Origin: Eledone cirrhosa
Lineage: Eukaryota
DNA length: 64,000 bases
Reading direction: 5' to 3'
Assembly (NCBI GenBank): GCA_964016885.1
Contig: OZ024743.1
Coordinates: 232,376,001 to 232,440,000, forward strand
A program made the position numbers and the translations under genes. Numbering within the stretch: position 1 is the first letter of the stretch; every line of letters begins with the position of its first letter. The notes beneath the pieces were generated by a model. The model saw only the letters and a program-made list of their open reading frames with translations, searched no databases and had not been told where the DNA came from. Shown here one piece after another: positions 13,391 to 58,935 of this stretch.

Positions 13391-13590
13391 TAAAATAAAG
13401 TTAAATAAAAGTCAAATGATTAAAATTTAGCTTCGTTTATTACTGCTATATATATTTCAGTGACAGCCATCTTTGGCTGTGACCTCTTCAAACTGCCTGA
13501 AGAGGTCACAGCCAAAGATGGCTGTCACTGAAATATATATAGCAGTAATAAACGAAGCTAAATTTTAATCATTTGACTTTTATTTAACTT

Positions 13591-13999: not shown

Positions 14000-16900
14000 A
14001 ATTTGTAGAAGGACTGACAGGTCAAATTTTGATCTGGTCAGTCCTCCAAAATATCGTGCCCCTCAGGGCAAAAACATCCAAAATATTTTTGAAAAACAGT
14101 ACATTTTAAAAAGAAATTGCCGAAGCACCTACTTCTTTGCCAAAACAAGAAGATGGGAAGGGAAAGTCATGCCTACTTGACCAGCAGGTAGTAGCAGACA
14201 TGGACAAAAAAGGCCAACATCATCGCCTCAACATCTAGAAGTGGAACAAGCTTCAGCTGCTTGTAAGCAACTGAACACGCCTGACGTCACAAACGTCACA
14301 TGTATCCACACACAGAAGGATATATATGTAGCAAACACTTCCTTTCGTAAAGAAATGGAAATCACACAACAAAAATTGAAAATAACAGCCCACAACAGAC
14401 ACCAAAAAATACAGAAAATGAAAAAAATGAAAACACATCCAACAATACCAATCAAAAGGAAAAAATTGTCAACACAAACACCAAAGAAAATACAAACAAC
14501 AGTGACAACAACAACAAGAAAGACAACAACAGCAAAATTTCTTTTGTTGATACAGTAAAAAAAACGGAAATATTTCAACTTTTGGATTTAACCAACGCGA
14601 AACAAAAGTTGGAAGAAGCTAAACAATATGTGACTTTTGGACCCAATGGGTCATTTAGCATAAATTCACCACAAGAACTAAGGAGAGAGAATGCCCTGCA
14701 AATGCATAAAAAAACCCAGCTCAACTATCTCAGAGTGAGATTGAGCTAGTTTTAAGGAACCACATGGATAAGATTTTATTCATTCAGAAAGCCAAACTTT
14801 TCGGCAGCATCTTGGCGCTAATGAAAAACAACATAACAGCACAAAAATATTCCATCGCGCCCATTGTGTCCACCCATTTTATATTTTTCCCTACATACAT
14901 GGGAAAAAGAACGCAAAAAATAAAAATTACATGCATAAGATCCAAAGTAGATATTTGCTGGACACTTTATGGCCTAATTGACTTTGAACAAGACATTTTG
15001 ATCTCAGTAGGAAAATCCTCCAGAGATATATTTAGTGGGACTAGCGTCGAAATTCTGGTGCAGATCAGCCCAGAATGTATAATGACAATCCCACAGAGAG
15101 TACCTCTGGATGGACAGACCTACATAAACATTTCGGTTGAGGGTAGGCGGCCCGCATGTTACCACTGCGCAACTAGAGGTCACCTAAGGGCTGCCTGTCC
15201 TCAATTGACAAAAAAAAAACCACTTTTACCAACACCACAAATAACAACACAACCACCACCACCACCACCACCACCACGACAAGAAAAAACAACAGCGAAC
15301 ACTATCCCACCCAACCCCTCCCCACCCAAAACAAATACAAAAACACACACAGACACTACAGAACCCCAAAGCATACCCCTACCCATCAACACGGATGAGG
15401 AACCCCTATCGACGGCACCCAGCGGCGATGAGGAGGAACCCTTCAAAACCTGCAAAAACATCTGGATCTCGCAACATAGACGGTACATTTGGACCCGGAG
15501 GGTCGACTAGTGGTTCTGGACCTTGGCAGTGGGGAAGGCGGAGCGTTTAGATTGGTAGCCGTCTACGGCCCTTTCGCGTCAATGCGGTCGGACTTCTTCC
15601 ATCGTCTGGAGACTTTTCTAGGGACGTCCCGCTCCTTGCTATTAGTGGGGGACTGGAATGGTATCCTAGATGCAAGTTGGGACTACGTAGGGGCCTGTCC
15701 CGATAGAGAGGGGTGTAATAGCCTCAAAGGGTTAATCGGTCGATTTGACCTGGCCGATAGATATCGACTAGATTTTCCGACTGCGCCAACCTGGACTTGG
15801 GCAAACCGCAGCGGATCATCTAGGTCGTACCTAGATAGGTTCTTAGTTAGAAATAAGGATAAGGACTTTTTAAGTTGTCCAAAAATGCGCATGGTTGGCT
15901 ATTCAGACCACAAGTTAGTGACCTGCATGGTCAGCCTTAACAGAACGCATAGACAGGGACCCGGTTACTGGAAGCTCAACTTGTCCTTACCGGCAAGTAA
16001 GGCTTACAGGGACCGGATTAGCACTTTAGTTAATGAGCGGTTGACGGGCGCCATCGTCAACAGCAGGTGGTGGGGATCTCTCAAAAGAGAGATTAGAGTA
16101 GTCTCTATAGAATTTAATAAGGAGTTAGCCTCAAATATAAATAGGAAGGAAAGGGAGTTGGTAGATAGTGTAGAAGAGGCAATTAGAAGCGGTGACGTGG
16201 CCAGAGTGCTAGCGTCGAGAACGGCCCTGGGCCAGTTCTTCGACGCGAAACACGAACGCTGCATCGTCCGAAGCAAAATACGTGCTCTGGGAAACGAGCA
16301 CATAGAGAGGGTTGGGAACGAACCCGGCTTTGGCGGGGCCCTGATCAACTTGGATCAATCTAAGGCGTTCGATAGGGTCGACCATGGTTACCTGGATGCG
16401 GTGCTAGCGGCGGCAGGCTTCGGACCCGTTTTCAGGGGCTGGATCAATACCATACACAGCAGCGGCATCTGCTCTAGGGTCAAGGTGAACGGCTACCTCT
16501 CGGAGCCGTTCGAAATCGCGCGGTCCATCCGACAAGGGTGCCCTCTCTCCTCCCTTCTGTATGTAATGACTCTAGAGCCACTGCTGCGGAAGTTGGAGTT
16601 GTTGCGGGGCATCCCGTTGGAACCGGGATTGCGGAAAGCGGTGTCGGCCTACGCCGATGACGTAACAGTAATGGTGTCGACGGCCTCGGAAAACGGGGCG
16701 ATCGGCACCTTACTGGAGGAGTACGAAAGGTTTACAGGGGCTAAGATGAACCGGGACAAGTCGATCGGTCTGCAACTCGGCACGTGGAGGGGCAGATCGA
16801 TGCGCTGGACGGAGGGCCCGGTGAAGTTGCTCGGGGTCTGGTTCGGACCAGACCTCCAGGTGGAGAAGATCTGAGGTGAGGTAACGAACAGGGTGTTTGC

Positions 16901-18268
16901 ACTGACCCAGAAGTGGGCCGAGTGCAAACTGTCCCTGAATGGTCGGGCGGAGGTGGCGAACACTTATATAGCGTCCGTCAACTACTACCGCCTGACCGTC
17001 GTGCTTTGCCCAAGAGAAACGCTCACCAAAATGGAGGGCGCACTCTTTCAATTCCTTTGGAAGAAGCGGGCTCCTATGGTGAGGAGATCCATCTGCTGTC
17101 AACACCCTTCGAAAGGAGGGCTGGGGATGCCGTAGCTAATGATACGTAAACACGCATTAAGGCTACGGCACCTCCAGGTATTCCTCACCGGTCAACCGGT
17201 GTGGGCCCCGTTTGTGAGGCGAGCCTTTCTCAGACTTGTCTCGCTCACCGAGCTGCAATCCTGGGTCAAGCAAAGACCGAGAAAACTGGGCGCCTTTCAC
17301 ACCGAGTGTGCCCAGGCACTCACGGCTCTCTGGCAGGCGGACTCGGCTGTCAGTGGAGAATCCACCTCGTCATTTTATAGAGGGCTGGTGGTTAGCAGGT
17401 GCGGCGACGCGCTCGGAGAAGCCCTAGGCATGGAGGAAGACGAACTGGCCAACCTGTTCGGTAGGACATTCAGCCCAGGACTCATAGATAATTTCCAGAT
17501 GTCCCTGGCTTGGCAGTGCTACCGAGGGGCTCTGCCCGTTCGAGAAAGTCTCTACAGACACAGGCGCCCGGGTAGGGACTCTTCGAAAAAGATCTGTCCC
17601 AGATGCGGGTGTGACGAGAAAACCGTTGCACACGCATTGGTACACTGCTCGGGCATTGCCGATCTGTGGGGCTATGTCGAACAACTGCTGTCAAGGGTGG
17701 GACCGATCCGGTTGACCAGCGAGTCTATTGTAACGATCAAGCCGCCTCCCCTCTTCAAAAACGAAGGAGAGGCGGTGTTTCTGTGCGTAGTAGCCATGGC
17801 GAAAGAGGCTGTATGGTGGACGCGTCTGAAAGGACTGAGGTCAGACACCTTTCTCTTTGGCCAACAACTGGTCCGTTTCTTCCGATATCATTTCGGAAGA
17901 AGGATCAGGATGGAGAGAGAGGTACTGCACCCCAGCCGTTTCTATTAAAGATGGGTGAAAGTGGGGAGAATGGCCTGTGTGAATGGGCCTTCACTCTACA
18001 TCAGACTGTAGGTGAGAAAGATGAAAGATCATGGGAGCACACTCTCTCTGTGCTCCTGAGGAGAAGGGTTGCACACTTCTTTCGGGGGGGGGGGGGTGCG
18101 ACCCCCCAAGGCGCCTCCTCCCTATTGAGGATTTTGTTTTTCAATTTATTTTTGTTATATTTTATATTTTATATTTTTATATTTTGTTATTGCCTCACCC
18201 TTATGTAAACTTCCCCCATTGTACTTGTCCCACTCTTTGATGGCCTGGTGGCAAATAAAAATAAAGTT
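14000..18268 (+). mobile_element. L1/Tx1-clade LINE, degenerate (ORF1 with CCHC knuckle; ORF2 APE + RT + C-terminal zinc motif)
   Basis: ORF1 piece CYHCATRGHLRAAC; ORF2 VGDWN, SYLDRF, SDH, YWKLN, LDQSKAFDRV, IRQGCPLS, AYADD, GGLGMP, CPRCG...HALVHC; U-rich 3' UTR and aataaa at ~18254. The 5' boundary is approximate. Confidence 0.92.
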
Positions 18269-18539
18269 ATATATGTATAAATAGATAGATGGATCTAGAG
18301 AGAAAGAGAGAGAGTGACAGACAGACAAAGAGTGAGACAGAGAGAGAGACAGAGAGATCAGTGTTATGATGAAATATGATATCTATATGTGTATATCTAG
18401 ACGACGTATATAAGTGACACGATGGAAGGAATATATTGATAAGCATATGTGAGAAGTATGTTTGACTGTTGCGCCTATATTTATATATATATATGTATGT
18501 GTGTGTGTGTGTGTGTGTATGTATGTGTGCGTGCGTGTG

Positions 18540-18595
<56 letters not shown>

Positions 18596-18681
18596 AACAT
18601 ACAGACATAAATGCACACACACGCAGAATATATATACATGTGTGTGTGTGTGTGTATGAACGCATACACACATAGATGACC

Positions 18682-18734
<53 letters not shown>

Positions 18735-18744
18735 AACATATATA

Positions 18745-19260
18745 TATAAATCGAAAAAATGAAACGAAATTTCATTTCTCACTCTGTCACTCTGTTACTT
18801 AAATATAAGTATCTATACGTACATACATATATATATACAGACGTACAGTAGTATGTATACATATACATACATGCACACATATATATATGTACGTATGGAT
18901 TTTCCGAGCATCTATTACAATGCTCAGCCGTTAATATGCATAAGGAAAGGATATACTTTCAGGCGTTCAATCATCTGGCAGGAAGGTATAAGGTGCTGAC
19001 GATAGCTAATAAGTTTGAAACTAGTACATCGTTCCTTTGTCAGTGTTGAACTAAAGGGCAACAATGGTTGCTAAACACTGTACGGCTTAATTCGGGATGT
19101 TTGTTTACAAACAAACCGAGCTTTATAATAAATGCTCGGTAAATCCATACGTACATATATATATATATGTGCATGTATGTATATGTATACATACTACTCT
19201 ACGTTGTATACATATATGTATGTACGTATACATACTTATATGTATATATATATATATTTT
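18745..19260 (+). mobile_element. Family C hammerhead repeat, single unit preceded by an inverted segment
   Basis: 18923-19260 matches the units at 23.4 and 24.1 kb; 18745-18920 is the reverse complement of the unit 3' part. Confidence 0.8.
18992..19030 (+). ncRNA. Minimal type I hammerhead, family C
   Basis: GGTG-CTGACGA-tAGCTaataAGTTt-GAAA-CTAG-TA|CATC. Confidence 0.8.
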
Positions 19261-19438
19261 ATATATACAAACATATATAATATTAAGGATACTATTTATG
19301 ATTATGTATATATTAAACTTTTTATAGTTATGTATATTTTAAACCTTAAACAGTGAAGGTCAGTAATGTATTACTACCTTATTAAATGTAAGATAAATAG
19401 CTCAATGTAATAACATCAGTTGTTCTACAGAGCAGTTA

Positions 19439-19637
19439 TATAGAATTCACAAGAATCAAAGCTATGTTCAAAGCATTTGTTCACTTACAATTGTTTCATC
19501 CAAACCTAGAGGAAAGGAGGTCAATTATATGAGCAAACATTGAAAAATGCTCCGAAGATACCAAACCTAGGTTTGGATGAAACAATTGTAAGTGAATAAA
19601 TGCTTTGAACATAGCTTTGATTCTTGTGAGTTCTATA
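19439..19637. repeat. Inverted repeat (71-bp arms) with hammerhead family D
   Basis: Arms 19439-19509 / 19567-19637. Confidence 0.88.
19548..19594 (+). ncRNA. Type I hammerhead, family D (U4>C core variant)
   Basis: TGCT-CCGAAGA-taCCAAAC ctag GTTTGGat-GAAA-CAATTG-TA|AGTG; stem III ACAATTGT is palindromic. Confidence 0.7.
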
Positions 19638-19639
19638 CA

Positions 19640-19702
<63 letters not shown>

Positions 19703-20020
19703 ATGTATGTATATGTTTGTATTAATATTTTGTCATATCCCTACACTGTTTCCTAATAAATATAATTTTATTGTTCCTCGGTGTAAGGAGGGCGTGAACT
19801 GCAATCTTGATACTTCGAACCGATCTCATACGATCAGTTCTTCATGTAAAACCTATCATTTTTAATATTTATGCATTTAGACATTCTTGTTTTTGTTATA
19901 TACTTTTCTCCTGCTTCTTCCTTGTTAGTGTTCAACCTACGTCTATATTTCTATTTAACTGCATATCAATCCACACACGCCAATTGATATGTATATGTAT
20001 ATATATATATACATATATAT

Positions 20021-20075
<55 letters not shown>

Positions 20076-20122
20076 TATGTATACACATATACATATATCT
20101 ACACATATATCTACATATACCT

Positions 20123-20156
<34 letters not shown>

Positions 20157-20203
20157 GAAGAAGAAGAAGAAGAAGAAGAAGAAAAAAAAGAAGAGAAAAA
20201 AAG

Positions 20204-20246
<43 letters not shown>

Positions 20247-20310
20247 CATATATACATACACACATAAATACACATACTCTCGCACATATACACACACATA
20301 CATTAATAAC

Positions 20311-20347
<37 letters not shown>

Positions 20348-20433
20348 GCAATAATAATAATAACGACAACAACAATAATAATATACATATTCATATATAT
20401 ATACACACACACGCACGCACATAAGCATATCTA

Positions 20434-20546
<113 letters not shown>

Positions 20547-20552
20547 TAGCAA

Positions 20553-23198
20553 CTAACAGTGCTGCGATCGAATGTGGCTTTTTAGCCCAGCCAATGATCT
20601 AAAATGTCTTGCACAGAGTCGGCAACCAAAACATTCACTGGGAATAGTCGGCTGTGGTTGGAGTTCGTGTACTTTTGCATGTCGCTTGAGCCCTCCTGCT
20701 GATTTACATTCTCTACCACATGTTTGGCAAGCATGATGAGTAGCATCTCCAACAGCAGCCTGGTAGTCAACCACTGGTCTTACTTTATGACTGCGAAGAT
20801 GACTTTCGAGTCCAGCTTTGCTTAGGCAGAGTCTCGCACAGACGCTGCATGTCAGCATCACAGGAGGACCCTCGCCGTCTGGAAGTGCAACAGCAATGCC
20901 CTTCCTCACGTCCCGCTTTACTTTCTCGTGTGCGATTCGAGATGCCTCAAAGGCAACTTTTCCCTCATATACAGTCTTTCTCCATTTATTACGATCAGCA
21001 GCAATATTTTCCCATGCAGAGATGTTAGCGTCTTTCAGAGAGGCTTTCAGGGAATCCTTATAACTCTCTTTTTGTTTATGTGGCGGTCGTTTTCCTTTAA
21101 CCAACTCTCCATAGAAGAGTTGTTTTGGTATTCTAGAATCCTTCATCCTGGCAAGGTGACCACTCCAACGGAGTCGTTGCTTAAGCACAAGAGCTTCTAT
21201 ACTGTCACACATAGAGCTTTCCAAAATCTCGACATCACTGATGTGGTCCCTCCAGTGAACGCCATGGATCCGTCTGAGACACATCTGATGGAAACGCTCC
21301 AATTGCTTAAGGTGGCATCGATATGTGACCCAGGTCTCGCAGGCATAAAGAAGACAAGAGAGTACACATGCCCTGTACACCTTTACCTTTGTCCTCCTGC
21401 ATATGTCTCGCCGACCCCAGAGTCGCCTTTCTAGCTTTCCGAAAGCATCACTTGCTTTCCTAATCCTAGGTGAGATTTCACTGTCAAGGTTGCCGTATCG
21501 ATTGACAGTGCTTCCCAGGTAGACAAACTGATCAACCACTCCAAGTCGTCTGCCATACACATAGATGTTTGGTTCAGTGTACTGCTTACCAGGGGCAGGT
21601 TGGTACATGACGACGGTTTTCTTGAGACTGACAGTCAAACCCAGGGCAGTGCAAGCGTCAGAAAATACATTCAAAATGTGCTGCATATCACTCTGTGTGC
21701 GCTACAAGATCGCAATCATCTGCATACAAGAGGTCTCTTATGACTGATGTAAATACTTCTTGTCTTCGCAGCAAAGCGCCTGATGTTAAATATGCTGCCT
21801 GAGGTTCGATATCGGATGTAAACACCATGCTCGCAATTCCTGAATGCAATACAGAAAACCATTGCAAAGTATATGGCAAACAGGGTCGGTGCTGGAATAT
21901 CCCCCTGTTTCACTCCATTTTTTACTGAGATAGGCTCCGACATGTTACATTCGACATTAACCCAAGCCTTCATGTCGTCATGGAAAGATCTAACTAAAGC
22001 AAGGAACTTATCAGGGCAACCAAGTTTCTGGAGAACCTTCCATGATGCATCTCTGTTGACAGTATCAAAAGCCTTTGTCAGATCGACAAAAACCTGATAC
22101 AGATACAAGCCTTGTTCAATGCACTTCTCCTGGAGCTGTCTAGCTGAGAAGATCATATCAGTAGTGTGGCGTCCAGCACGAAAACCAGATTGACTTTCAG
22201 GAAGGACACAATCTGCAATGTGTGTCAGCAGACGGTCCAGAAGCACCCTACATAAAACTTTCCCTACGATAGAAAGCAATGATATACATCTGTAGTTCCC
22301 ACAATCATTCCTGTTACCCTTTCCCTTGTACAAGACCACCATTACTGCATCTCTCCAGTCCTCAGGCACGGATTCATTAACCCATATCTTTCCAAACAAA
22401 GAGTGAAGATGTTGCAGGAGTCTCTCACCACCATATTGTAGGAGCTCAGCATGTATGCCATCCATACCTGGAGATCTTCCACTGTTCAGCTTCGAAATAG
22501 CCACTGCAACCTCCACAAGCGTCGGAGGTTCTGCGAGAGCTACTTTCACAGGACTTTCCGGAATGAGATTGAGGAAATCTTCACTGACGACAGACGGCTG
22601 ATTCAAAAGATCATCAAAGTGCTCTCGCCACCTTTGTAGAATTCCCTGTGAGTCACGAAGAAGTTCTTTGCCATCTTTGCTGCGAATCGGTGTCACCAGA
22701 GAAGAAGACGGTCCATAAACCTCACGCAAGAGACTGTACAACAGCTTTGTGTTATTGCAATCAGACGCAGTTTGTATCTCACCAGCCTTCTCACTCCACC
22801 ACTGATCCTTCATCTGAGAAAGACTCCGCCTAACACGTGATTTTACATCCCTGAGCTCCTCATGCAACGTATTCCTCTCCTGTGGTTTTGCCGTCAAGTA
22901 GCGTGACAGAGCACGCCTCTTATTAGCCAACAAGTCTTCTATATGTACATCATTCTCATTAAACCAGTCCTGATGTTTTCTCTGCACCAATCCCAGAACA
23001 CGTCTGCGTACATCATAAACCGACTTTTTAAGGGTCGGCCAATCCTCACCAAGATCTGCAGCCTGCATCTCTTCTTCCAATGTCCTCTTCACATTTTTAT
23101 CCTTAAGACGAGCAGCATTCAATCTTTTGGGCAGGGCAACACCAGGAGCCCGGATTTTACGTTTGGTGATTAGATTCACTTTTGCGCGTACCAGGCGT
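20553..23198 (-). mobile_element. RTE-clade LINE copy 1, 5'-truncated and frameshifted, with 3 C-terminal C2H2 fingers
   Basis: RSPGMDGI, LPESQSGFR, FVDLTKAFDTV, GVKQGD, LLYADD, YLGS, LRWSGH; CSVC..HLRSH, CQTC..HAKVH, CRLC..HIRSQH. Confidence 0.95.
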
Positions 23199-23469
23199 GC
23201 ATATATATATGTGTGCCTGTATGTATATATATACATGCTACTGTACGTCTGTATACATATATGTATGTACGTATACGTACATACTTACATTTAAGTAAGT
23301 GCCGTACTAAGAGTGAGAAATGAAATTTCGTTACATTCTATTCCATTTATCGTTTTCGGTGCGCCCGGCCGACTGAACTCACTCGATATGCAAATTAGGC
23401 TGCTCAGCCGTTAATTTTCATAAGGAAAGTATATACTTTCGGACGTTCAACCATCTGGCAGAAAGGTAT

Positions 23470-23512
23470 ACGGTGCTGACGATAGATAATAAGCTTGAAA
23501 CTAGTACATCGT
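23470..23512 (+). ncRNA. Minimal type I hammerhead, family C
   Basis: ACGGTG-CTGACGA-tAGATaataAGCTt-GAAA-CTAG-TA|CATCGT (one stem II mismatch). Confidence 0.8.
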
Positions 23513-23733
23513 TCCTGTGTCAGTGTTGAACAAAAAGGTGACGTGGTTGCCTAAACACTGTACGGCGTAATTCAGGCTGTTTGTTTACAAACGAACAAAC
23601 CGAGCATTATAATAAATGTTCGGTAAACTGATACGTGCATATATATATATGTGTGTGCCTGTGTGTATATATATACATGCTACTGTACGTCTGTATACAT
23701 ATATGTATGTACGTATATATACATACTTACATT

Positions 23734-23784
<51 letters not shown>

Positions 23785-24206
23785 GGAAAAGAATGAAACG
23801 AAATTTTATTTCTCACTCTAATCAGCGTGAAACTAGTACATCGTTCCTGTTTCAGTGTTGAACAAAAAGTTGACGATGGTTGCCGAACACTGTACGGCGT
23901 AATTCGGACTGTTTGTTTTCAAACAAACCCAACATTATAATAAATCTTCGGTAAACCCATACGTACATATATATATGTGTGCATGTACGTCTGTATACAT
24001 ATATGTATGTAGGTATACATACTTATATTTAAGTAACAGCCGTACTAAGAGTGTGAAATGAAATTACGTTTCATTCTTTTCCATTTATCGTTTTCGGTGC
24101 GCCCGGCCGACTAACTCACTCGGTATGCAAATTAGGCTGCTCAGGCGTTAATATGCATAAGGAAAGTATATACTTTCAAACGTTCAATCATCTGACAGAA
24201 AGGTAT

Positions 24207-24249
24207 ACGATGCTGACGATAGCTAATAAGCTTGAAACTAGTACATCGT
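24207..24249 (+). ncRNA. Minimal type I hammerhead, family C (intact)
   Basis: ACGATG-CTGACGA-tAGCTaataAGCTt-GAAA-CTAG-TA|CATCGT; perfect 6-bp stem I and palindromic ACTAGT stem III. Confidence 0.9.
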
Positions 24250-25030
24250 TCCTGTGTTAATGTTGAACAAAAACGCGACGATAGTTGCCGAACACTGTAC
24301 GGCGTAATTCGGGCTGTTTGTTTACAAACAAACCGAACATTATAATAAATGTTCGGTAAACCCATACGTACATATATATATATATATGTGTGCATGTATG
24401 TATATATATACATACTACTGTACGTCTGTATACATATATGTATGTACGTATACAGACTTACATTTATATATATATATATATATGTATGTATTTATATATT
24501 TATTTTTATATATACAAATACATATACATATCTTTCTCTATATATATATGTGTGTGTGTGTGTGTGCGTGTGTGTGTATGTGTGTGTGTGTGTGCATATA
24601 TGTGTTTGCGTATAGGTATGCATGTATGCACTTATGTGTGTTTGCATGTATGTATGCCTGCATCTAATAATTTTTTTATCTACATACCTTCCTACTTATC
24701 TCTCGCCCCCTCCTCTCTTTTCCTCCCTCTTTCCCTTGCCCCTATCTCTCCCTCTCTTTCCCTCCCTCTCTCACTGTATGTACTCATATATCTTTCTGTC
24801 GCTTTATATATTAATCCATCACTATGGCGTGTCAGATTGATGAAGTTATAATCTGTTGCTTCAATTCACCCCGACATTTCTCCACGTCTCACACAGAACC
24901 GAGAAACATTCACATAAACACACACGAGTATGTACATAAAGACAAAGACAAATGCGTGTGCCTGCCTGCGAATGCGTGTGTGTGTGTGTGTGAGTGTATG
25001 TGTGTGCATATATGTATGTGTGCATGTGTG

Positions 25031-45674: not shown

Positions 45675-46016
45675 ATTATTCAAAATATTAACAAATGAAG
45701 ATATTCACATAATCAAAATATATGCTTTATTATATATATTTCGAAGATACTGTGTTGTTGTTTTTTCAGTACGTCCTCGTCAGATTAAATATATGATTTG
45801 ATATATGACATACATCTACAGTTTTGATATTTCAATTCCAGTACTGCCAATACTGTAATTGAAATATCAAGACCGTAGAGGTATGTCATATATCAAATCA
45901 TATATTTCATCTGACGAGGACGTACTGGAAAAAAAAACACAGTACCTTCGAAATATATATAATAAAGCATATATCTTGATATGTGAATATCTTCATTTGT
46001 TAATATTTTGAATAAT
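45675..46016. repeat. Palindrome (~165-bp arms) with two outward-facing family H hammerheads (45720-45793 -, 45901-45972 +)
   Basis: CTGACGA-GGACGTACT..AGTACCTTC-GAAA-TATATA-TA on the + arm (AGTATCTTC on the - arm); apex ~45848; homologous to 35223-35500. Confidence 0.9.
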
Positions 46017-46033
46017 TATATATATATATATAT

Positions 46034-48000
46034 ACCACCTCCCAACAACACTTAATAATGAACATACCTTACTAGTAACCTTTGATGTCATCAATTTATA
46101 TTCCAATATCCCACACAACCTAGGTATAGAGGCAATACAATTCTGGATGGAAAATTTCCCTAGTGAACTCCCACAGCGCATCCCTAAAGAATTTGTGTTG
46201 GAGGGACTCAAATTCATCTTGGAAAATAATTTCTTCAGATTCAATGCCAAATACTACAGACAGAAATCTGGGACTGCCATGGGCACGAAAGTGGCCTCCT
46301 CATACGCCAACCTTGTCATGGGATATTGGGAAACCACTCTCTACCACAAAGTTATAGACAAATACGGCAACCACTTCTACCAACACATAGAAAATAACTG
46401 GAAGAGATATCTGGACGACTGCTTCATCCTCTAGCATGAAAGTATAGATAGACTGTTTGAGTTTAAAACCCTTCTGAATGGACTCAACACAAACTTACAA
46501 TTCACAATGGATTACAGCCATGAACAACTCCCTTTCCTCGACATCCTCATCAAGAAAACAAGCAACAAAATAGAAACAGACATATACTACAAACCCACAG
46601 ACTCCAAACAATACCTTCCATTCAACTCGTGCCTCCCTAGACACACCGAAATGGTAAATCCTTATAACCTAGCCAGAAGGATCTGCACAATAGTTTCAGA
46701 TAAATACACATGCAACACACGACTAGAAGAATTAAAAAACACACTTATCAGCAGAAACTACCCACCATCCCTAATCACCAATGGATTCCAACGTGCCCTA
46801 AAACTAGATATCCAGGAACTAGGACACCCCAAACCCAGGAATGAACGGCAACAAAAAGCTCTACCATACATCTCCACACACAACCCCCTCAACAATGAGG
46901 CATTCGACACCATCCTCTAGAACATTCCTTTACTAAAAAGAGACTCAAGAATGAACAAAATCCTCCAAACACACAACATCATAAAGAGCAAAAGACAACC
47001 TAAATCCATAAAAAACATCCTCACACAAGCCAAAATCCAACAAACCCTCACAATGAACCCTATAGTAACAAAATGCGACAGGCCCAACTGTGGTATATGC
47101 ATAAATCTAATAGAAGGTTCAACATTCCATTTTAAACAAGGACAGCGTTTCACAGTTAAAACAACTTTACAAGTGCATCTGAAACCCTCATCTATGTTTT
47201 AACCTGCTCAGGTTTTCAAGAGCACTACATAGGACAGACAAAAAACAGCCTCCATCAACGTATGACCGGCCATACATCACAAATTAAAATACAGGAATTC
47301 AGAAAGATTGCATTTAGTGAACATATCGACAATTGTGCTCACAACCAACATCCAAACTTTAAAATGTTCCCTATTTATAAATTCATAGAGAACGCTACTT
47401 TCATCCAACGTACCAATAAGGAAACATATTTCATTAACAAATTCCAACTCCCACTTAATGCTCTAAAAATCGGACCAATCTAAAACTGCAACAAACAATC
47501 AAACATTTACAAGAGTTACCTCCCTCACACCCTACCTAATCATTTTTCTTAAATAAATTAAATATCATCCAGCAAGAATTGCTTCCCCCTGCATATTAAC
47601 TCTCTAAAAAGGGAAATCATATCAGACCTCAGTCCACCATTTGCCTCCACCATGGAATCATGGATCAACTAAGCACTCTTGCTATATTAACACATTTTGA
47701 TCTGCTTAACTTCAAGAACTATGCCTGTAAATAACATTATTTGTTCTTCCACATTGACTTTTTATGCTCTACATTGTGCACGTTTTTTTCCTTTTTCTTT
47801 TTTCTTTTTTCTTTTTACTTCATAAACCTTGTTTGTAAATAACATTATTCTTTCTGCACCTTCTGTTTAACGTGTGTGACACCACACTAATATATTTCAC
47901 TAACATTTGATAATGCATAAAAACGCTGAAACCGGTAATAGACAATTATTAAATATATAAATAGATAAATAAATGCCATTGTTAAATAATAAACAAATCA
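46034..48000 (+). mobile_element. Penelope-like element (third coding family), 5'-truncated
   Basis: LVTFDVINLYSNI, QKSGTAMGT, WKRYLDD, LPFLDI, YYKPTDS, CxxxxCxxC, HYIGQT..LHQRMTGH; decayed hammerhead ttgataa-tgc..gct-GAAA-CCGG-TA at 47903-47942. Confidence 0.92.
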
Positions 48001-48127
48001 ACTAATACCTTAACACTTCACACAAAGTAAAACATTTCGTTTTGATCATTTTCTAACCCAGAAAAGAGAGGGATATATATATACAAATATAAATTCAGCG
48101 AGAATCGTATATATATATATATATATA

Positions 48128-50790: not shown

Positions 50791-50899
50791 CAATAATAAT
50801 AACGACAACAACAATAATAATATACATATACATATATATATACACATACACGCACACACATAAGCATATCTATACACACACACACACACACGATAGCAA

Positions 50900-53800
50900 C
50901 TAACAGCGCTGCGATCGATTGTGGCTTTTGAGCCCAGCCAATGATCTAAAATGTCTTGCACAGAGTCGGCAACGAAAACATTCACTGGGAATAGTCGGCT
51001 GGGGTTGGAGTTCGTGTACTTTTGCATGTCGCTTGAGCCCTCCTGCTGATTTACATTCTCTACCACATGTTTGGCAAGCATGATGAGTAGCATCTCCAAC
51101 AGCAGCCTGGTAGTCAACCACTGGTCTTACTTTATGACTGCGAAGATGACTTTCGAGTCCAGCTTTGCTTAGGCAGAGTCTCGCACAGACGCTGCATGTC
51201 AGCACCATAGGAGGACCCTCGCCGTCTGGAAGTGCAACAGCAATGCCCTTCTTCACGTCCCGCTTTACTTTCTCGTATGCGATTCGAGATGCCTCAAAGG
51301 CAACTTTTCCCTCATATACAGTCTTTCTCCATTTATTACGATCAGCAGCAATATTTTCCCATGATTCAGCAGAGATGTTAGCGTCTTTCAGAGAGGCTTT
51401 CAAGGAATCCTTATACCTCTTTTTTGGTTTATGTGGCGGTCGTTTTCCTTTAACCAACTCTCCATAAAAGAGTTGTTTTGGTATTCTAGAATCCTTCATC
51501 CTGGCAAGGTGACCACTCCAACGGAGTCGTTGCTTAAGCACAAGAGCTTCTATACTGTCACACATAGAGCTTTCCAAAATCTCGACATCACTGATGTGGT
51601 CCCTCCAGTGAACGCCATGGATCCGTCTGAAACACATCTGAGGGAAACGCTCCAATTGCTTAAGGTGGTGTCGATATGTGACCCAGGTCTCGCAGGCATA
51701 AAGAAGACAAGAGAGCACACATGCCCTGTACACCTTTACCTTTGTCCTCCTGCATATGTCTCGCCGACCCCAGAGTCGCCTTTCTAGCTTTCCGAAAGCA
51801 TCACTTGCTTTCCTAATCCTAAGTGAGATTTCACAGTCCTTCCCAGGTAGACAATCTGATCAACCACTCCAAGTCGTTTCCCAGACACATAGATGTTTGG
51901 TTCAGTGTACTTCTTACCAGGGGCAGGTTGGTACATGACAACGGTTTTCTTGAGACTGACAGTCAAACCTAGGGCAGTGCAAGCGTCAGAAAATACTTCA
52001 AAATGTGCTGCATATCACTCTCTGTATGCGCTACAAGATCGCAATCATCTGCATACAAGATGTCTCTTATGATTGATGTAAATACTTTTGTCTTCGCAGC
52101 AAAGTACCTGATGTTAAATATGCTGCCTGAGGTTCGATATCGAATGTAAACACCATTCTCGCAATTCCTGAATGCAATACAGAAAACCATTGCAAAGTAT
52201 ATGGCAAACAGGGCCTGTGCTGGAATATCCCCCTGTTTCACTCCATTTTTTACTGAGATAGGCTCCGAAATGTTACCTCTGACATTAACCCAAGCCTTCA
52301 TGTCGTCATGGAAAGACCTAGCTAAAGCAAGGAACTTATCAGGGCAACCAAGTTTCTGGAGAATCTTCCATAATCTTCCATCTCTGTTAACAGTATCGAA
52401 AGCTTTTGTCAGATCGACAAAACCTGATACAGATCCAAGCCTTGTTCCATGCACTTCTCCTGGAGCTGTTTAGCTGAGAAGATCATATCAGTAGTGCCAC
52501 GTCCAGCACGAAAACCAGATTGACTTTCAGGAAGAACACAATCTGCAATGTGTGTCAGCAGACGGTCCAGAAGCACCCTACATAAAACTTTCCCTACGAC
52601 AGAAAGCAATGATATACCTCTGTAGTTCCCACAATCATTCCTGTTACGGATTCATTAGCCCATATTCGGTACGGATTCATTAGCCCATATCCTGCCAAAC
52701 AAAGAGTGAAGATGTTGCAGGAGTCTCTCACCACCATATTGTAGGAGCTCAGCATGTGTGCCATCCATACCTGGAGATCTTCCACTGTTCAGCTTCGAAA
52801 TAGCCACTGCAACCTCCACAAGCGTCGGAGGTTCTGCGAGAGCTACTTTCACAGGACTTTCTGGAATGAGATTGAGGAAATCTTCACTGACGACAGACGG
52901 CTGATTCAAAAGATCATCAAAGTGCTCTCGCCACCTTCGTAGAATTCCTTGTGAGTCACGAAGAAGCTCTTTGCCATCCTTGCTGCGAAGCGGTGTCACC
53001 AGAGAAGAAGACGGTCCATAAACCTCACGCAAGAGACTGTACAACAGCTTTGTGTTATTGGAATCAGACGCAGTTTGTATCTCACCAGCCTTCTCACTCC
53101 ACCACTGATCCTTCATCTGAGAAAGACTCCGCCTAACACGTGATTTTACATCCCTGAGTTCCTCATGTAACGTATTCCTCTCCTGTGGTTTTGCCGTCAA
53201 GTAGCGTGACAGAGCACGCCTCTTATCAGCGAACAAGTCTTCTATATGTACATCATTCTCATTAAACCAGTCCTGATGTTTTCTCTGCACCAATCCCAGA
53301 ACACGCCTGCCTACATCATAAACCGACTTTTTAAGGGTCGGGCAATCCTCACCAAGATCTGCAGCCTGCATCTCTTCTTCCAATGTCCTCTTCACATTTT
53401 TCTCCTTAAGACGAGCAGCATTCAATCTTTTGGGCAGGGCAACACCAGGAGCCCGGATTTTACGTTTAGTGATTAGTTTCACTTTTGCGCGTACCAGGCG
53501 GTGGTCCGTCCAGCACTCAACTCCACGAAGAACACTAACGCACTGCACATCCTGTCTGTCACGCATCCTGACTAGGACGTAGTCCAAAAGATGCCATTCC
53601 TTAGATGCAGGATGCATCCATGTGGTCTTGAATTTGTTCTTTTGTTGGAACATGGTGTTGGTAACACACAGATCCAGCTCCTCACACATCTGCAGCAGGA
53701 GCATACCATTGTTGTTACACTTTCCCACCCCATGCCTTCCGATTACATTCCATGTTTTAAAATCCCTACCCACTCTAGCATTAAAGTCACCAAGCACGAT

Positions 53801-55949: not shown

Positions 55950-58935
55950 TAAACAATTGAAAATTTCCCTCAACGAAAATTTCCCTCAACGAAATCTTCC
56001 AGAGAGAAATTAATTCATGCTGATCGTATTAAAACGACAATATTAAAAAAAAGAAGAAATAATGAAACGTGTTATTAAGGAAATAGGGGATGAATATTTA
56101 CGACGGATAAAAACCCCAACATTTTGGCAAATCAACGCCTGTTTAACAAGAACAAAACACCACTAAAAATACCATCATATATAACTAATATAGAAAAAAG
56201 ATTGTTGACTTACGAAAAACCATAGGATATGTGACAATGCTCCTTACATGCCATCAAACACAAAAAACCTCACTCCTCACGCAACAAAGAGTGAAAAATT
56301 AAATAGAGACGATGTTTGGTAACAGTAGAACCAGAACTCTCCAATATAAGCTGATCACCCTCAAACAACAATTGAGAGCTGTTAGCGAAAAACGCCGATA
56401 CCTGAAGAAGGTAGATGAAAGAAAAGTGCTTAATAAAAGAAACCAAATATCAGTATATAGAGATATGAATGGCAAAATAATAAGTGTCACTGAGGCCCCA
56501 TCCCAGAAAGACATGGATTCCTTTTGGGGAAAAATATGGGATGAAAAGAAGAATTTCAGCCAAGATGCAGTGTGACTAAAAGAAATCTGAAAGAACTATT
56601 GCTCCTACACTACAACAAAACATACGAAATAAGTGAGGGTACCCTTGAGACTGTGATAGGAAAACTCCAAGATAAGAAAACACCAGGAAGAGACATGATT
56701 GTCGGCTACTGGTACAAAAACCTGATATTCTATCGGAGGTTTCTTACTGACCTCTACCAAAAACTTCTTAAGGGAGATACACTTATACCAGAATGGTTGA
56801 CATTAGCACAAACATTACTGGTCCCCAAGAACAAAGACACCCACTTGGCAAAAAACTACCGACCCATTGCATGCCAGCACCTGATGTATAAGATATATAC
56901 AGCCTGTCTGAACCTATTCCTCCAAGATCACTGTGAAAATAATAACATCATCACAGATGAACAAGCAGCTGGAAAGAAAAGTGTTTGGGGGGTGTGCTGA
57001 ACAACTCCTAATCAAGAAAACTGCGATGTCGGAGGTGCGATAACTTAGCGGGAATATGGCTACAGTCTGGCTGACCTACAGGAAACCTTTCCAATCTGTT
57101 CCGCCCTCTCGGATGATAGAGGCCCTCCGACTTGCTAAAGTCCCAGAAATTATTGTCAGAGCCATGGAGATGCTGTCTTCTGCTTGGGCTACTATCCTAA
57201 GGTTAAAGACAGAGAGGTAGGACTCTATTTTCACTGATAAAATAAAATATTGCAGGGGTATATTTCAGGGGGACAGTCTCTCTGTGATATTATTCATCTT
57301 GTCATTAAACCCCTAAGACTTTTCTGCTCAAGAAATGTGAGGGATACATCATTGGCTCACAGGAGGACAGAAATAAGAACCTAAACCATAATTTCTTTGT
57401 AGACGATCTGAAACTCTATGCCAAGAACATGGATGGGATGAAGAAACATCTTGACCTGGTTACAACGTTCTCAAAGGATATAGGAATGGAGTTTAGCCAA
57501 GATGAATGCTTATACATGACTGTAAAGCGGGGAAAAACAACAACCCAAACTAGCAACATTGTCATCAATGGCCTAACTATTTCCCCGATATCTGATGAGG
57601 ACTGCTACAGATACCTGGGGATAGATGAGAACATATCCTATAATGGTATCTGTAATAAGGAACACGTAACCAGGGAATACTACACCTGATTAAGAAAGAT
57701 CTGGTCATCGGAACTCTCTGCGCAAAACAAAACAGTGGCTCACCTGTTTGCTGTGCCTGTCCTAACACCAACGTTTGGAATACTCAATTGGACGATAGAC
57801 GAAATCCGAGCAGTTGATGTTGGAACTCGAAAAATACTAAACAACACCGGAAACTTCACATCAACAGTGACATAAACCGCCTTTACCTGAAACGTAAGCA
57901 GGGTGGCAGAGGCCTAACATCAGTCCAGGCAACATTTGAATGTCGCATCATATCTCTCCGACAACATCTACGAGCCTCGAAGCGTAGGAGCCCGTTTCTC
58001 GAGCTATTCTATCTGCATGAAACAGATAAGATCATGAGATATTCCCTGTGTGATAATCAAAAATTCACACTCAGAGAAGTCGCTCAGCAGTGTCGCAATG
58101 AATCCATGGATGAAAAACTGCATACTTATCAGCAAAAAATCATGCATGGATATGTTGCCGGGAAGCTCCAGAGTGAGAGTAATATAGATAAAGAAAGTAG
58201 TCTATCTTGGACCAAAACCGCTATATTGGCTCCCACTTTGAAGGATACGCTTTTGCAATCCAAGAACAGGAGATTAGCACGAAATACCTGATTCACAAAA
58301 GAGATAGGGATGCAGGCAAAACACCTCGATGTGATAACAAGTGTAGACTCTGCAGAACTAACATCAAGGAAATCACCCATGTCATCAGCAGCTGTCCAAA
58401 GATGTCATCGCGGTAATATCTACCTATGAGGCATGATATAGTAGCCAAAACACTGTACAATGGAGTTCGAAAAAAAAATAGCCCCGAAAATAAACACATT
58501 AAAAGCTACAGCAATGTGGAAGACATCAATGTACATAATATGAAAGAGTACTGGTGGAATGTTCCAGTAAAAACCCCAATAAAATGCAGGCATAACAGAC
58601 CAAATATTATATGGGACAGGGAGAAGAAATCATGCACAGTAGTGGAAATTAGCTACCCAGTAGATGCCAATATATTAGCAAAGATCAGTGAAAAGGAGAA
58701 TATTTATGCAGAACTGATGAGAAATCTGCTGATACTCCACACTGATTACACTTCAGATTTATGCCTGTGATTATTGGGGCACTGGGATATGTTAGTAACT
58801 GCCTCAATACAAATCTTGAGAAGCTAGGCACAGGAACAGAAAGAACACAATTAGTTTGGAAACTACATGTACAATCCATTAATGGAACAGTAAAAATATG
58901 TAAAACATTCCAAAAACTGTGCATCTAATAACTGC
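55950..58935 (+). mobile_element. R4/Dong-like non-LTR retrotransposon (RT + CCHC + restriction-like endonuclease), pseudogenised
   Basis: KTPGRD..GYWYK, NYRPIAC, GIFQGDSLS, FFVDDLKLY, YRYLG, CRLC...THVISSC, RHD, RPNII..DREKK..VVEISYP. Confidence 0.9.

Follow-up and report, generated by a model that had tools for sequence, protein, structure and literature searches.

A likely non-LTR retrozyme family of Eledone cirrhosa with a PLE as its probable carrier in trans

Results

Two stacked insertions lie at the locus

The window, meaning the whole 64,000-nt stretch of E. cirrhosa DNA analyzed here, has predicted hammerhead cleavage sites after positions 23506, 23838 and 24243, where a sequence-only reading had placed them. 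GAAACTAGTA ends at each of the three and also at 19026. Full type I hammerhead cores start at 23476, 24213 and 18996; no core was found for the site at 23838, from which that reading had rightly reported the ribozyme 5' half to be missing. It had taken the region for three head-to-tail monomers. Instead, we find two independent insertions, each of its own subfamily, with (TA)n and a 39-nt end piece in inverted orientation between them.

Insertion 1 (23196..23734, + strand; 99% to the L051 subfamily) is 5'-truncated, spans about 1.25 units and stops at a 3' end, termed A, followed by (TA)n. Its type I hammerhead motif (23464..23516, + strand; core at 23476, predicted cut after 23506) has a stem II weakened by one C>A. 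The insertion is joined head-to-head, with a 2-nt overlap, to a 5'-truncated RTE-like LINE. At its 3' end, insertion 1 shares a (TA)n target tract (23735..23780) with the inverted arm of insertion 2. This arm (23781..23819, - strand) is 39 nt long and begins at a second 3' end, B. The sense arm of insertion 2 (23818..24465, + strand) overlaps it by 2 nt, begins 20 nt before a cut site and runs for about 1.5 units to 3' end A, beyond which is another (TA)n tract (24466..24483). It is 92-96% identical to the L008 subfamily, with 95-96% overall but 92% in the first turn.

At the start of this sense arm is the 3' half of a hammerhead (23818..23848, + strand; site after 23838), the core and the 5' strand of stem I being missing, and (TA)n plus the inverted piece stand between this site and the one at 23506. 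An intact type I motif follows (24201..24253, + strand; core at 24213, predicted cut after 24243). The last two cut sites are indeed 405 nt apart, but 405 nt is not the unit of the family as had been proposed: the cut-to-cut unit here (23839..24243, + strand), predicted to be highly self-paired, is a variant of the ~430-nt monomer, 429 nt less a 24-nt deletion in an AU-rich hairpin. The "tail" (24025..24086, + strand), a stretch of about 60 nt that separates the preferred 3' ends A and B, is here internal to the tandem.

The dispersed copy noticed earlier is present at 18.7-19.2 kb. Its inverted arm starts from 3' end B beside (TA)n (18746..18925, - strand), and its sense arm (18921..19244, + strand), 96% identical to the L067 subfamily, has a hammerhead core at 18996 with the cut predicted after 19026 and runs out into (TA)n at 3' end A. 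In our preferred reading, the window holds three products of the proposed two-armed insertion into (TA)n. The locus had been put forward as a source of monomers or circRNA. It is a poor candidate because it lacks two consecutive complete hammerheads, the arrangement that marks a locus as "active" in the accessible part of 10.64898/2026.07.22.740005.

The repeat is an abundant, ORF-less family

A strict pattern for the type I hammerhead with an intact core matched 15,577 times genome-wide and not once in the reversed control. The number is far above chance, and the hammerhead and repeat unit are real. In 59 monomers from loci other than this one, the cut-to-cut unit is usually 418-472 nt, with ~430 nt typical; monomers of the youngest subfamily are longer (456-569 nt) due to TA expansion. 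The longest ATG ORF in three doubled monomers was 51-102 aa and GC was 0.35-0.41 in 2-kb bins, in keeping with the short non-coding unit of non-LTR retrozymes (about 150-450 bp, GC below 50%). Some copies are tandem units with consecutive complete hammerheads: of 71 insertions in an unselected stretch of contig C1, 7 have a tandem pair 400-480 nt apart.

None of 113 family copies has an attached ORF. A tblastn search of their 1.5-kb flanks, with three PLE protein families as queries, found an endonuclease match upstream in the same sense in 0 of the 113. This result bears on an alternative raised in the sequence-only reading, that the copies are tandem, 5'-truncated pLTRs of an unseen autonomous PLE. 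The three protein families used as queries leave some room for such an element, the insertion architecture described below matches PLE insertions, and Xenopus retrozymes are related to pLTRs (10.64898/2026.07.22.740005, accessible part). Against it, besides the endonuclease result, long copies run 5' into the previous monomer and 3' into the next, for up to 7.5 units, and several subfamilies plus a sister family have evolved as ORF-less circles of sequence. We therefore disfavor the pLTR explanation and consider it highly improbable.

The Rfam scan gave no match at the gathering score. Below it was a weak HH9 match at 24195-24266 (21.3 bits, E 0.024), and TA-hairpin miRNA models dominated the E-value scan. 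The unit was absent from the Tandem Repeats Finder output. A polymerase III origin was considered and rejected: words resembling A and B boxes precede the hammerhead at a spacing of 43 nt but neither fits the consensus, end B is beyond a T-run, and ARAGORN found no tRNA gene within 18000-25000.

The hammerhead fold is conserved

The hammerhead has a 6-bp helix I and a short palindromic helix III (ACUAGU), as in the canonical type I (PMC4209133, accessible part). Across 28 pairs in 19 distinct family copies, 97.7% of cells are paired, and one pair has changed on both sides. Between this family and its sister, both sides differ in 6 of 16 pairs; the core, loop II and the palindrome are unchanged. 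Since these six double changes keep stems I and II paired in an element with no ORF, we conclude that the ribozyme fold is under selection.

A double hammerhead is predicted to fold at -20.4 kcal/mol, versus 2 x -1.8 for monomers with helix III. Isolated 86-91-nt hammerhead segments folded no better than shuffles in three of four cases. Folded as circles, all seven monomers tested gave z scores of -5.5 to -8.5, and of -2.2 to -5.6 with the AU hairpin left out. The predicted circle is highly self-paired, as in other retrozymes. Placement of the family among the non-LTR retrozymes is supported at the family level.

Insertions carry a PLE signature

We examined 144 insertions, the top matches of five queries and as such biased to long, young copies. 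The sense 3' end is A in 68, B in 65 and elsewhere in 11, with (TA)4 directly after it in 127 of the 144 versus 9.5% of random windows. An inverted arm is present in 72. The two arms use opposite 3' ends in 51 of the 53 classifiable insertions (Fisher p 6e-13). All 12 opposite-strand neighbors are head-to-head. While 5' ends are random and inverted arms vary in length, the two 3' ends leading into (TA)n are fixed. Targeting of (TA)n, reciprocal head-to-head arms and two fixed 3' ends are seen directly in the DNA. So are the 5' truncation, partial tandems and head-to-head inverted 5' copy of PLEs, and their optional tail at one end only, here in the form of two 3' ends. The tail, the inversion and two internal RT starts have been described for PLEs (PMC8557442, PMC3846280, PMC11167929). 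An ORF-bearing PLE family surveyed at 30 loci likewise has two ends, 45 nt apart, and reciprocal arms in eight of eight cases. Reinsertion of an ORF-less non-LTR retrozyme family by a PLE enzyme, suggested in the sequence-only reading, is supported by this architecture. Of the 72 inverted arms, 27 pass the cut site and 45 fall short, with none stopping within 5 nt; the template was copied straight through the cut site.

The same ends bear on whether the repeat spreads as DNA, like a satellite or MITE, without an RNA step and with the hammerhead as a relic. Tandem arrays and inverted ends do exist, and some arrays expand as DNA. However, 54 of the 71 insertions in the unselected stretch of contig C1 have a single hammerhead motif. 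Random 5' ends, fixed 3' ends, variable inverted arms and RNA helix covariation also argue against spread as DNA, which the end statistics already largely refute and which we give almost no weight.

Mobilization of a SINE-like RNA by a LINE, with inversions arising by twin priming, is also very unlikely. The RTE-like LINE adjoining insertion 1 would be one such carrier, but the family has nothing in common with the RTE 3' end sequence and only 2 of 113 copies have an RTE match next to them. Two internal ends are found in place of a poly(A) or a single 3' end. Twin priming gives non-overlapping pieces, unlike the two arms here, which contain the same 3'-terminal sequence. LINEs are nevertheless named alongside PLEs as possible carriers of retrozymes in the accessible part of PMC7229834.

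A search for the partner of the family returned no homologue. The monomer showed no significant similarity to the 3' regions of four PLE families, with no score clearly above shuffles, nor to sequence downstream of 36 endonuclease matches, and tblastn of PLE fragments from the window against the 113 loci found none. The young PLE "D" lies within about 1.5 kb of three of the four initial youngest-subfamily arrays. As a partner it was a post hoc candidate and was rejected, lying as near to only 3 of 29 other loci, against 9 of 145 in older sets. A PLE carrier is likely but putative, with no homologue of the family among the four PLE families compared.

Young arrays and the template

The sister family is very young and has two-armed arrays of up to about 23 near-identical monomers. 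In one two-armed insertion (6.9 + 12.9 units) all 18 full monomers are identical, and reciprocal end use holds in all 15 classifiable two-armed insertions. Divergence between turns in the youngest subfamily is 6.3 per kb within an insertion versus 15 per kb between insertions. Turns of one insertion in older subfamilies share 20 rare variants versus 494 unshared, and this sharing did not separate a circular from a linear template. The variant of the array with 18 monomers is present at four further loci and is therefore not private to its locus, so the array may have had a long linear source. Growth as DNA is visible in some arrays. In L247 a diverged dimer is repeated and the breakpoint is not at the cut, and in one sister-family array a variant recurs with period 3 in one of the arms. 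Unlike monomers occur inside some young arrays (L305, L313), and the last turns of both L313 arms share a variant absent from the turn before.

These arrays are relevant to a reading with the same element and PLE enzyme but another template, namely the uncleaved linear transcript of multimeric arrays that are re-extended by DNA duplication, the hammerhead being incidental. We regard this as a serious possibility that falls somewhat short of probable. DNA-level duplication in L247 and the C28 cluster, unlike monomers in young insertions, the variant shared by the last turns in L313 and the sister-family variant at five loci are all consistent with it. In addition, hammerhead mutants left insertion by an anole PLE unchanged in vitro (PMC11167929). 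A linear template does not account for stems I and II, which stay paired despite six double changes from one sister family to the other in an element without an ORF to release. Arms of 11-13 near-identical monomers would also require equally long sources, and no identical array exceeds 13 monomers among the 39 scored of 263 candidates. We favor a circular template.

Discussion

We consider it highly probable that the family is an ORF-less hammerhead element which a PLE moves in trans. Like the metazoan non-LTR retrozymes of coral, mussel and axolotl, as given in the accessible part of PMC7229834, it has an ORF-less unit of a few hundred bases with one canonical type I hammerhead, low GC and a self-paired predicted circle. 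Among axolotl hammerheads, HHR_Amex1 has a similar weak palindromic helix III and HHR_Amex2 a similar U-U at the helix II base. Metazoan retrozymes are described there as tandem repeats, whereas the copies here are mostly dispersed (TA)n insertions of 1-2 units; two fixed 3' ends and head-to-head arms receive no mention in that part of the paper. Circles and cleavage were demonstrated for those elements, while here they are predicted. Vertebrate retrozymes considered PLE derivatives (10.64898/2026.07.22.740005, accessible part) also occur as hammerhead monomers, dimers and multimers in a PLE-rich genome, with the same proposed carrier. Their case rests on co-occurrence and pLTR homology, ours on insertion architecture, with no pLTR homologue among four families.

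The family shares 5' truncation, partial tandems, an inverted 5' copy, an optional one-end tail, a terminal-repeat hammerhead, a (TA)n preference and two internal RT starts with endonuclease-bearing PLEs (PMC8557442, PMC3846280, PMC11167929). It differs in lacking an RT-endonuclease ORF, and none of the 113 copies searched showed the arrangement of an autonomous PLE, with an RT plus GIY-YIG ORF between terminal repeats. Its tail is also longer (~60 versus 30-40 nt), and in place of a minimal hammerhead it has a canonical one with 6 bp in helix I. Non-autonomous Chlamys elements such as MRC1 are ORF-less PLE passengers with multicopy head-to-tail insertions as well; most Chlamys lack the canonical hammerhead that this family has, and their passengers generally share 3' sequence with an autonomous family (PMC8557442). 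By description, the family is also unlike two tandem hammerhead satellites in being mostly interspersed. In one, Schistosoma Sm-alpha, the repeats are processed to monomers. Those of newt satellite 2 are processed in the same way (PMC7229834, accessible part).

For the full reading, in which a PLE would move a likely non-LTR retrozyme in trans from a circular template, we judge the case evenly balanced. In this model, dimer-to-multimer copies would be transcribed, and the transcript would be cut as a double hammerhead through the palindromic helix III ACUAGU, with the monomer ligated into a circle. The PLE enzyme would cut both strands of (TA)n. Site A would serve as the start of one cDNA and site B, some 60 nt farther downstream, as that of the other. 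Each cDNA would travel round the template until its synthesis aborted, and their 5' ends would then join via an overlap of a few bases. Two published results count against the full reading. Uncleaved RNA is the main substrate of an anole PLE in vitro (PMC11167929), and eight of nine Xenopus retrozyme dimers showed no cleavage (10.64898/2026.07.22.740005, accessible part). More tentatively, and with less than an even chance, a retrozyme lineage of two sister families, holding hammerheads in the tens of thousands, may still be amplifying by rolling-circle RT of 430-470-nt circRNAs, with a dimeric PLE-type enzyme priming from (TA)n break ends at two fixed sites on the circle.

For the return of animal retrozymes to the genome, PLEs became candidate carriers through co-occurrence and shared hammerheads (PMC7229834, PMC7761336 and 10.64898/2026.07.22.740005), and in Xenopus additionally through pLTR homology (10.64898/2026.07.22.740005, accessible part). 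A literature search covering few subscription papers found no report of such an architecture for a retrozyme. In E. cirrhosa, an ORF-less hammerhead family itself bears the PLE insertion signature, alongside an ORF-bearing PLE with the same signature. Its two start sites are used reciprocally almost without exception, in agreement with one PLE that in vitro initiates RT at two sites and cuts both strands (PMC11167929). The very young subfamilies offer ready templates for asking whether circles are the substrate. If the proposed mechanism is true, these insertions would be a direct genomic record of both the two-site mechanism of PLEs and a circRNA template.

Organization of the hammerhead locus

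The window spans positions 232376001-232440000 of contig C4 in a 3.0-Gb assembly. The motif GAAACTAGTA ends in it at 19026, 23506, 23838 and 24243, the last three being exactly the sites after which the sequence-only reading had predicted cleavage. A motif scan placed the starts of complete type I hammerhead cores at 18996, 23476 and 24213. The same reading had described a head-to-tail trimer, which gives way here to two separate insertions. In a self-search, the 3' end of the element recurred in inverted orientation at 23779-23819, downstream of a (TA)n tract. The order along the locus is therefore insertion 1 (23196-23734; 1.25 units), the (TA)n that follows it, then insertion 2, in which an inverted arm of 39 nt precedes a sense arm of 1.5 units (23818-24465) ending in (TA)n. 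Compared with six subfamily representatives, each named for a copy elsewhere in the genome, insertion 1 is nearest the L051 type (99%), insertion 2 the L008 type (92-96%), and the copy at 18.9 kb the L067 type (96%). The last spacing is indeed 405 nt, but this is a deletion variant, the 429-nt unit less 24 nt of AU-rich hairpin, rather than the monomer length; cut-to-cut monomers at loci outside the window measure 418-472 nt (n = 59).

Two RTE-like LINE copies with C-terminal C2H2 fingers are also present (20477-23197 and 50824-53500, both minus strand; 93.8% identical), the first cut at 23197, its junction with insertion 1. Other types of LINE-like reading frame, both decayed, lie at 14710-17948 and 56545-58770 (both plus strand). 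Upstream of the hammerhead, at 24140-24192, are A-box-like and B-box-like words with tRNA-like spacing; both deviate from the consensus, and no tRNA gene was called there.

The window locus has no two consecutive complete hammerheads and therefore does not count as active under the criterion in the available part of 10.64898/2026.07.22.740005. We infer that a double hammerhead would in principle allow the half-site at 23838 to be cut by the intact core at 24213, but the window copies are probably spent products rather than masters.

The predicted ribozyme

In the predicted catalytic motif, a 6-bp helix I leads into a UAU/U internal loop, the core reads CUGACGA, a U-U lies at the base of helix II, whose loop is AAUA or AACA, and the palindrome ACUAGU provides helix III. 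According to the accessible text of PMC4209133, this is the canonical metazoan type I form, active as a dimer. Folding as a double hammerhead gives -20.4 kcal/mol; a monomer gives -1.8 when helix III is closed and -7.2 when it is open. Pairing is kept in 97.7% of cells within the main family, with four pair types at one helix I pair, which is modest evidence alone as related sequences may outscore the tool's shuffles without structure. Between the main family and a second, sister family, 6 of 16 pairs are changed on both sides (at most 2 in slid controls), all six representing one deep split, not independent events across many lineages. In Rfam, the motif matched only HH9, below threshold. Folded as circles, seven monomers had z scores of -5.5 to -8.5, the ends being closed by helix I in five and partly in two. 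The main family's youngest subfamily has, in addition, a long-range helix into the tail with a compensatory C-G to U-A change.

Abundance and a sister family

A strict genome-wide pattern (helix I, core and helix III) gave 15,577 matches and its reversed control none. A looser pattern gave 14,249, counted on the forward strand only, its reverse count being inflated through a variable gap. Main-family copies at at least 80% identity occur in 7 of 60 evenly spaced 10-kb stretches. On contig C1, the initial 100 strict matches fall into 71 insertions: 54 have a single motif, nine are simple head-to-head pairs, and seven contain a tandem pair 400-480 nt apart. The family is therefore mainly interspersed, with dimers and multimers a minority.

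A pattern with another helix II uncovered the sister family (5,469 matches; control 14). Its 465-468-nt unit is homologous to the main monomer throughout (score 197-219; shuffles at most 47). It is very young, with two-armed arrays of up to about 23 units at loci including L338/L339 (C1:30.83 Mb), L340/L341 (C1:56.39 Mb) and L342-L354; no copy was found in the window or a 600-kb genome sample.

That sample holds 35 hammerhead-like motif matches, four from the main family. Motifs of several unrelated families lie in the window at 13497, 35380, 36623, 39622, 40663, 43977, 60875, 61015, 63346 and 63484, and the repeats at 60.7-61.2 and 63.2-63.6 kb carry one per strand.

Reciprocal two-ended insertions

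We mapped 144 insertions onto the repeated monomer (best matches of five queries, minus five duplicate loci and one self match). The 3' end of the sense arm falls at site A (unit positions 199-225) in 68 of them, at site B (257-276) in 65 and at other positions in 11; the 5' ends are dispersed, without clustering at the cut. An inverted arm is joined head-to-head in 72, often overlapping by a few bases. Of the two-armed insertions, 53 could be classified, and in 51 of these the two arms differ in the site used (A/B 29, B/A 22, B/B 2, A/A 0; Fisher p = 6e-13), the other 19 being unclassifiable. A (TA)4 run lies just beyond the sense 3' end in 127/144 and beside the inverted arm in 56/72; random windows have it in 9.5%. 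Likewise, 17 of 28 sister-family loci are two-armed, and all 15 classifiable are reciprocal.

As a control, the window's ORF-bearing Penelope-like element (PLE) family has two 3' ends 45 nt apart, both into (TA)n, and 8/8 terminal inverted arms at 30 loci are reciprocal. The PLEs described in the available parts of PMC8557442 and PMC3846280 form partial tandems, carry a 5' copy in inverted orientation, have a tail of 30-40 nt at one end and prefer (TA)n. In the available part of PMC11167929, a PLE protein is shown to cut both strands and extend them, and reverse transcription begins at two internal sites bounding the tail.

Attachment of the copies to an RT ORF, left possible by the sequence-only reading, was not borne out: none of 113 copies has an endonuclease match directly upstream in sense, a PLE protein match lies within 1.5 kb of 17, and long copies run on into adjoining monomers on both sides. 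The monomer gave no alignment above shuffle level with sequence downstream of 36 endonuclease matches or with four PLE 3' regions, except for scores that exceeded the shuffle maximum marginally, by a few points.

Several PLE families were observed alongside. The control family, of which the window has two copies with RT and endonuclease fragments (52-2960, plus; 43945-42016, minus), has a (TA)n target and, about 235 nt ahead of the first of its two 3' ends, a hammerhead-like core. Two more PLE-like families are fragmented (39763-36519, minus; 46012-48100, plus), the latter with RVT_1 and GIY-YIG matches. A young, abundant PLE, 'D' (L269:1-1876; L154:8160-10000), has two 3' ends in (TA)n and a hammerhead-like motif with CAGAAGA replacing CUGANGA.

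Circular or linear template

Among the 72 inverted arms, which the queries did not select, 27 pass the cut, 45 end earlier and none stops within 5 nt of it. The template was therefore continuous across the site, as would be a circle or a multimer left uncleaved. Copies of the main family's youngest subfamily (L266-L269, L276-L317) are 99-100% identical, and many of its insertions have 3-11 units. After removal of 14 pieces (junk, old or duplicate) and of the TA hairpin, 115 turns from 28 insertions were compared; within an insertion they differ by 6.3 per kb, versus 15 between insertions. Shared minor variants number 4.8 per kb versus 0.19 (0/200 permutations), a within-insertion similarity driven mostly by three insertions. 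In one sister-family insertion (6.9 + 12.9 units) all 18 full monomers are identical, and in another (11.3 + 11.6 units) three variants are common to all 20; such near-identity across long two-armed insertions is a prediction of rolling-circle copying.

Against it, the variant of the 6.9 + 12.9-unit array occurs at four other loci, a diverged dimer is duplicated at the DNA level in L247, and variants are periodic in several arrays, with period 2 in five (L247, L266, L305, L306, L347) and period 3 in two (L241/L242; L340). DNA duplication explains the L247 pattern; dimeric circles may lie behind the others. Uncleaved RNA is also the main in vitro substrate of the anole PLE in the accessible text of PMC11167929. 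A circular RNA template thus stands at about even chances, and a linear multimer is a tentative but serious alternative.

Relation to known retrozymes

The main family fits all testable features of the non-LTR retrozymes in the available part of PMC7229834, except for tandem completeness at the window locus. PLEs have been proposed as retrozyme carriers, without insertion-level evidence in the accessible parts of PMC7229834 and PMC7761336; for vertebrates, co-occurrence and pLTR (PLE terminal repeat) homology were added (10.64898/2026.07.22.740005, available part). The words hammerhead and ribozyme are absent from the accessible part of an octopus repeat annotation (PMC13282606). Our literature search, which covered main texts, found no report of a reciprocal two-ended architecture for a retrozyme; supplements may list the family. 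The main family records the proposed PLE-carrier mechanism in the genome with unusual clarity.
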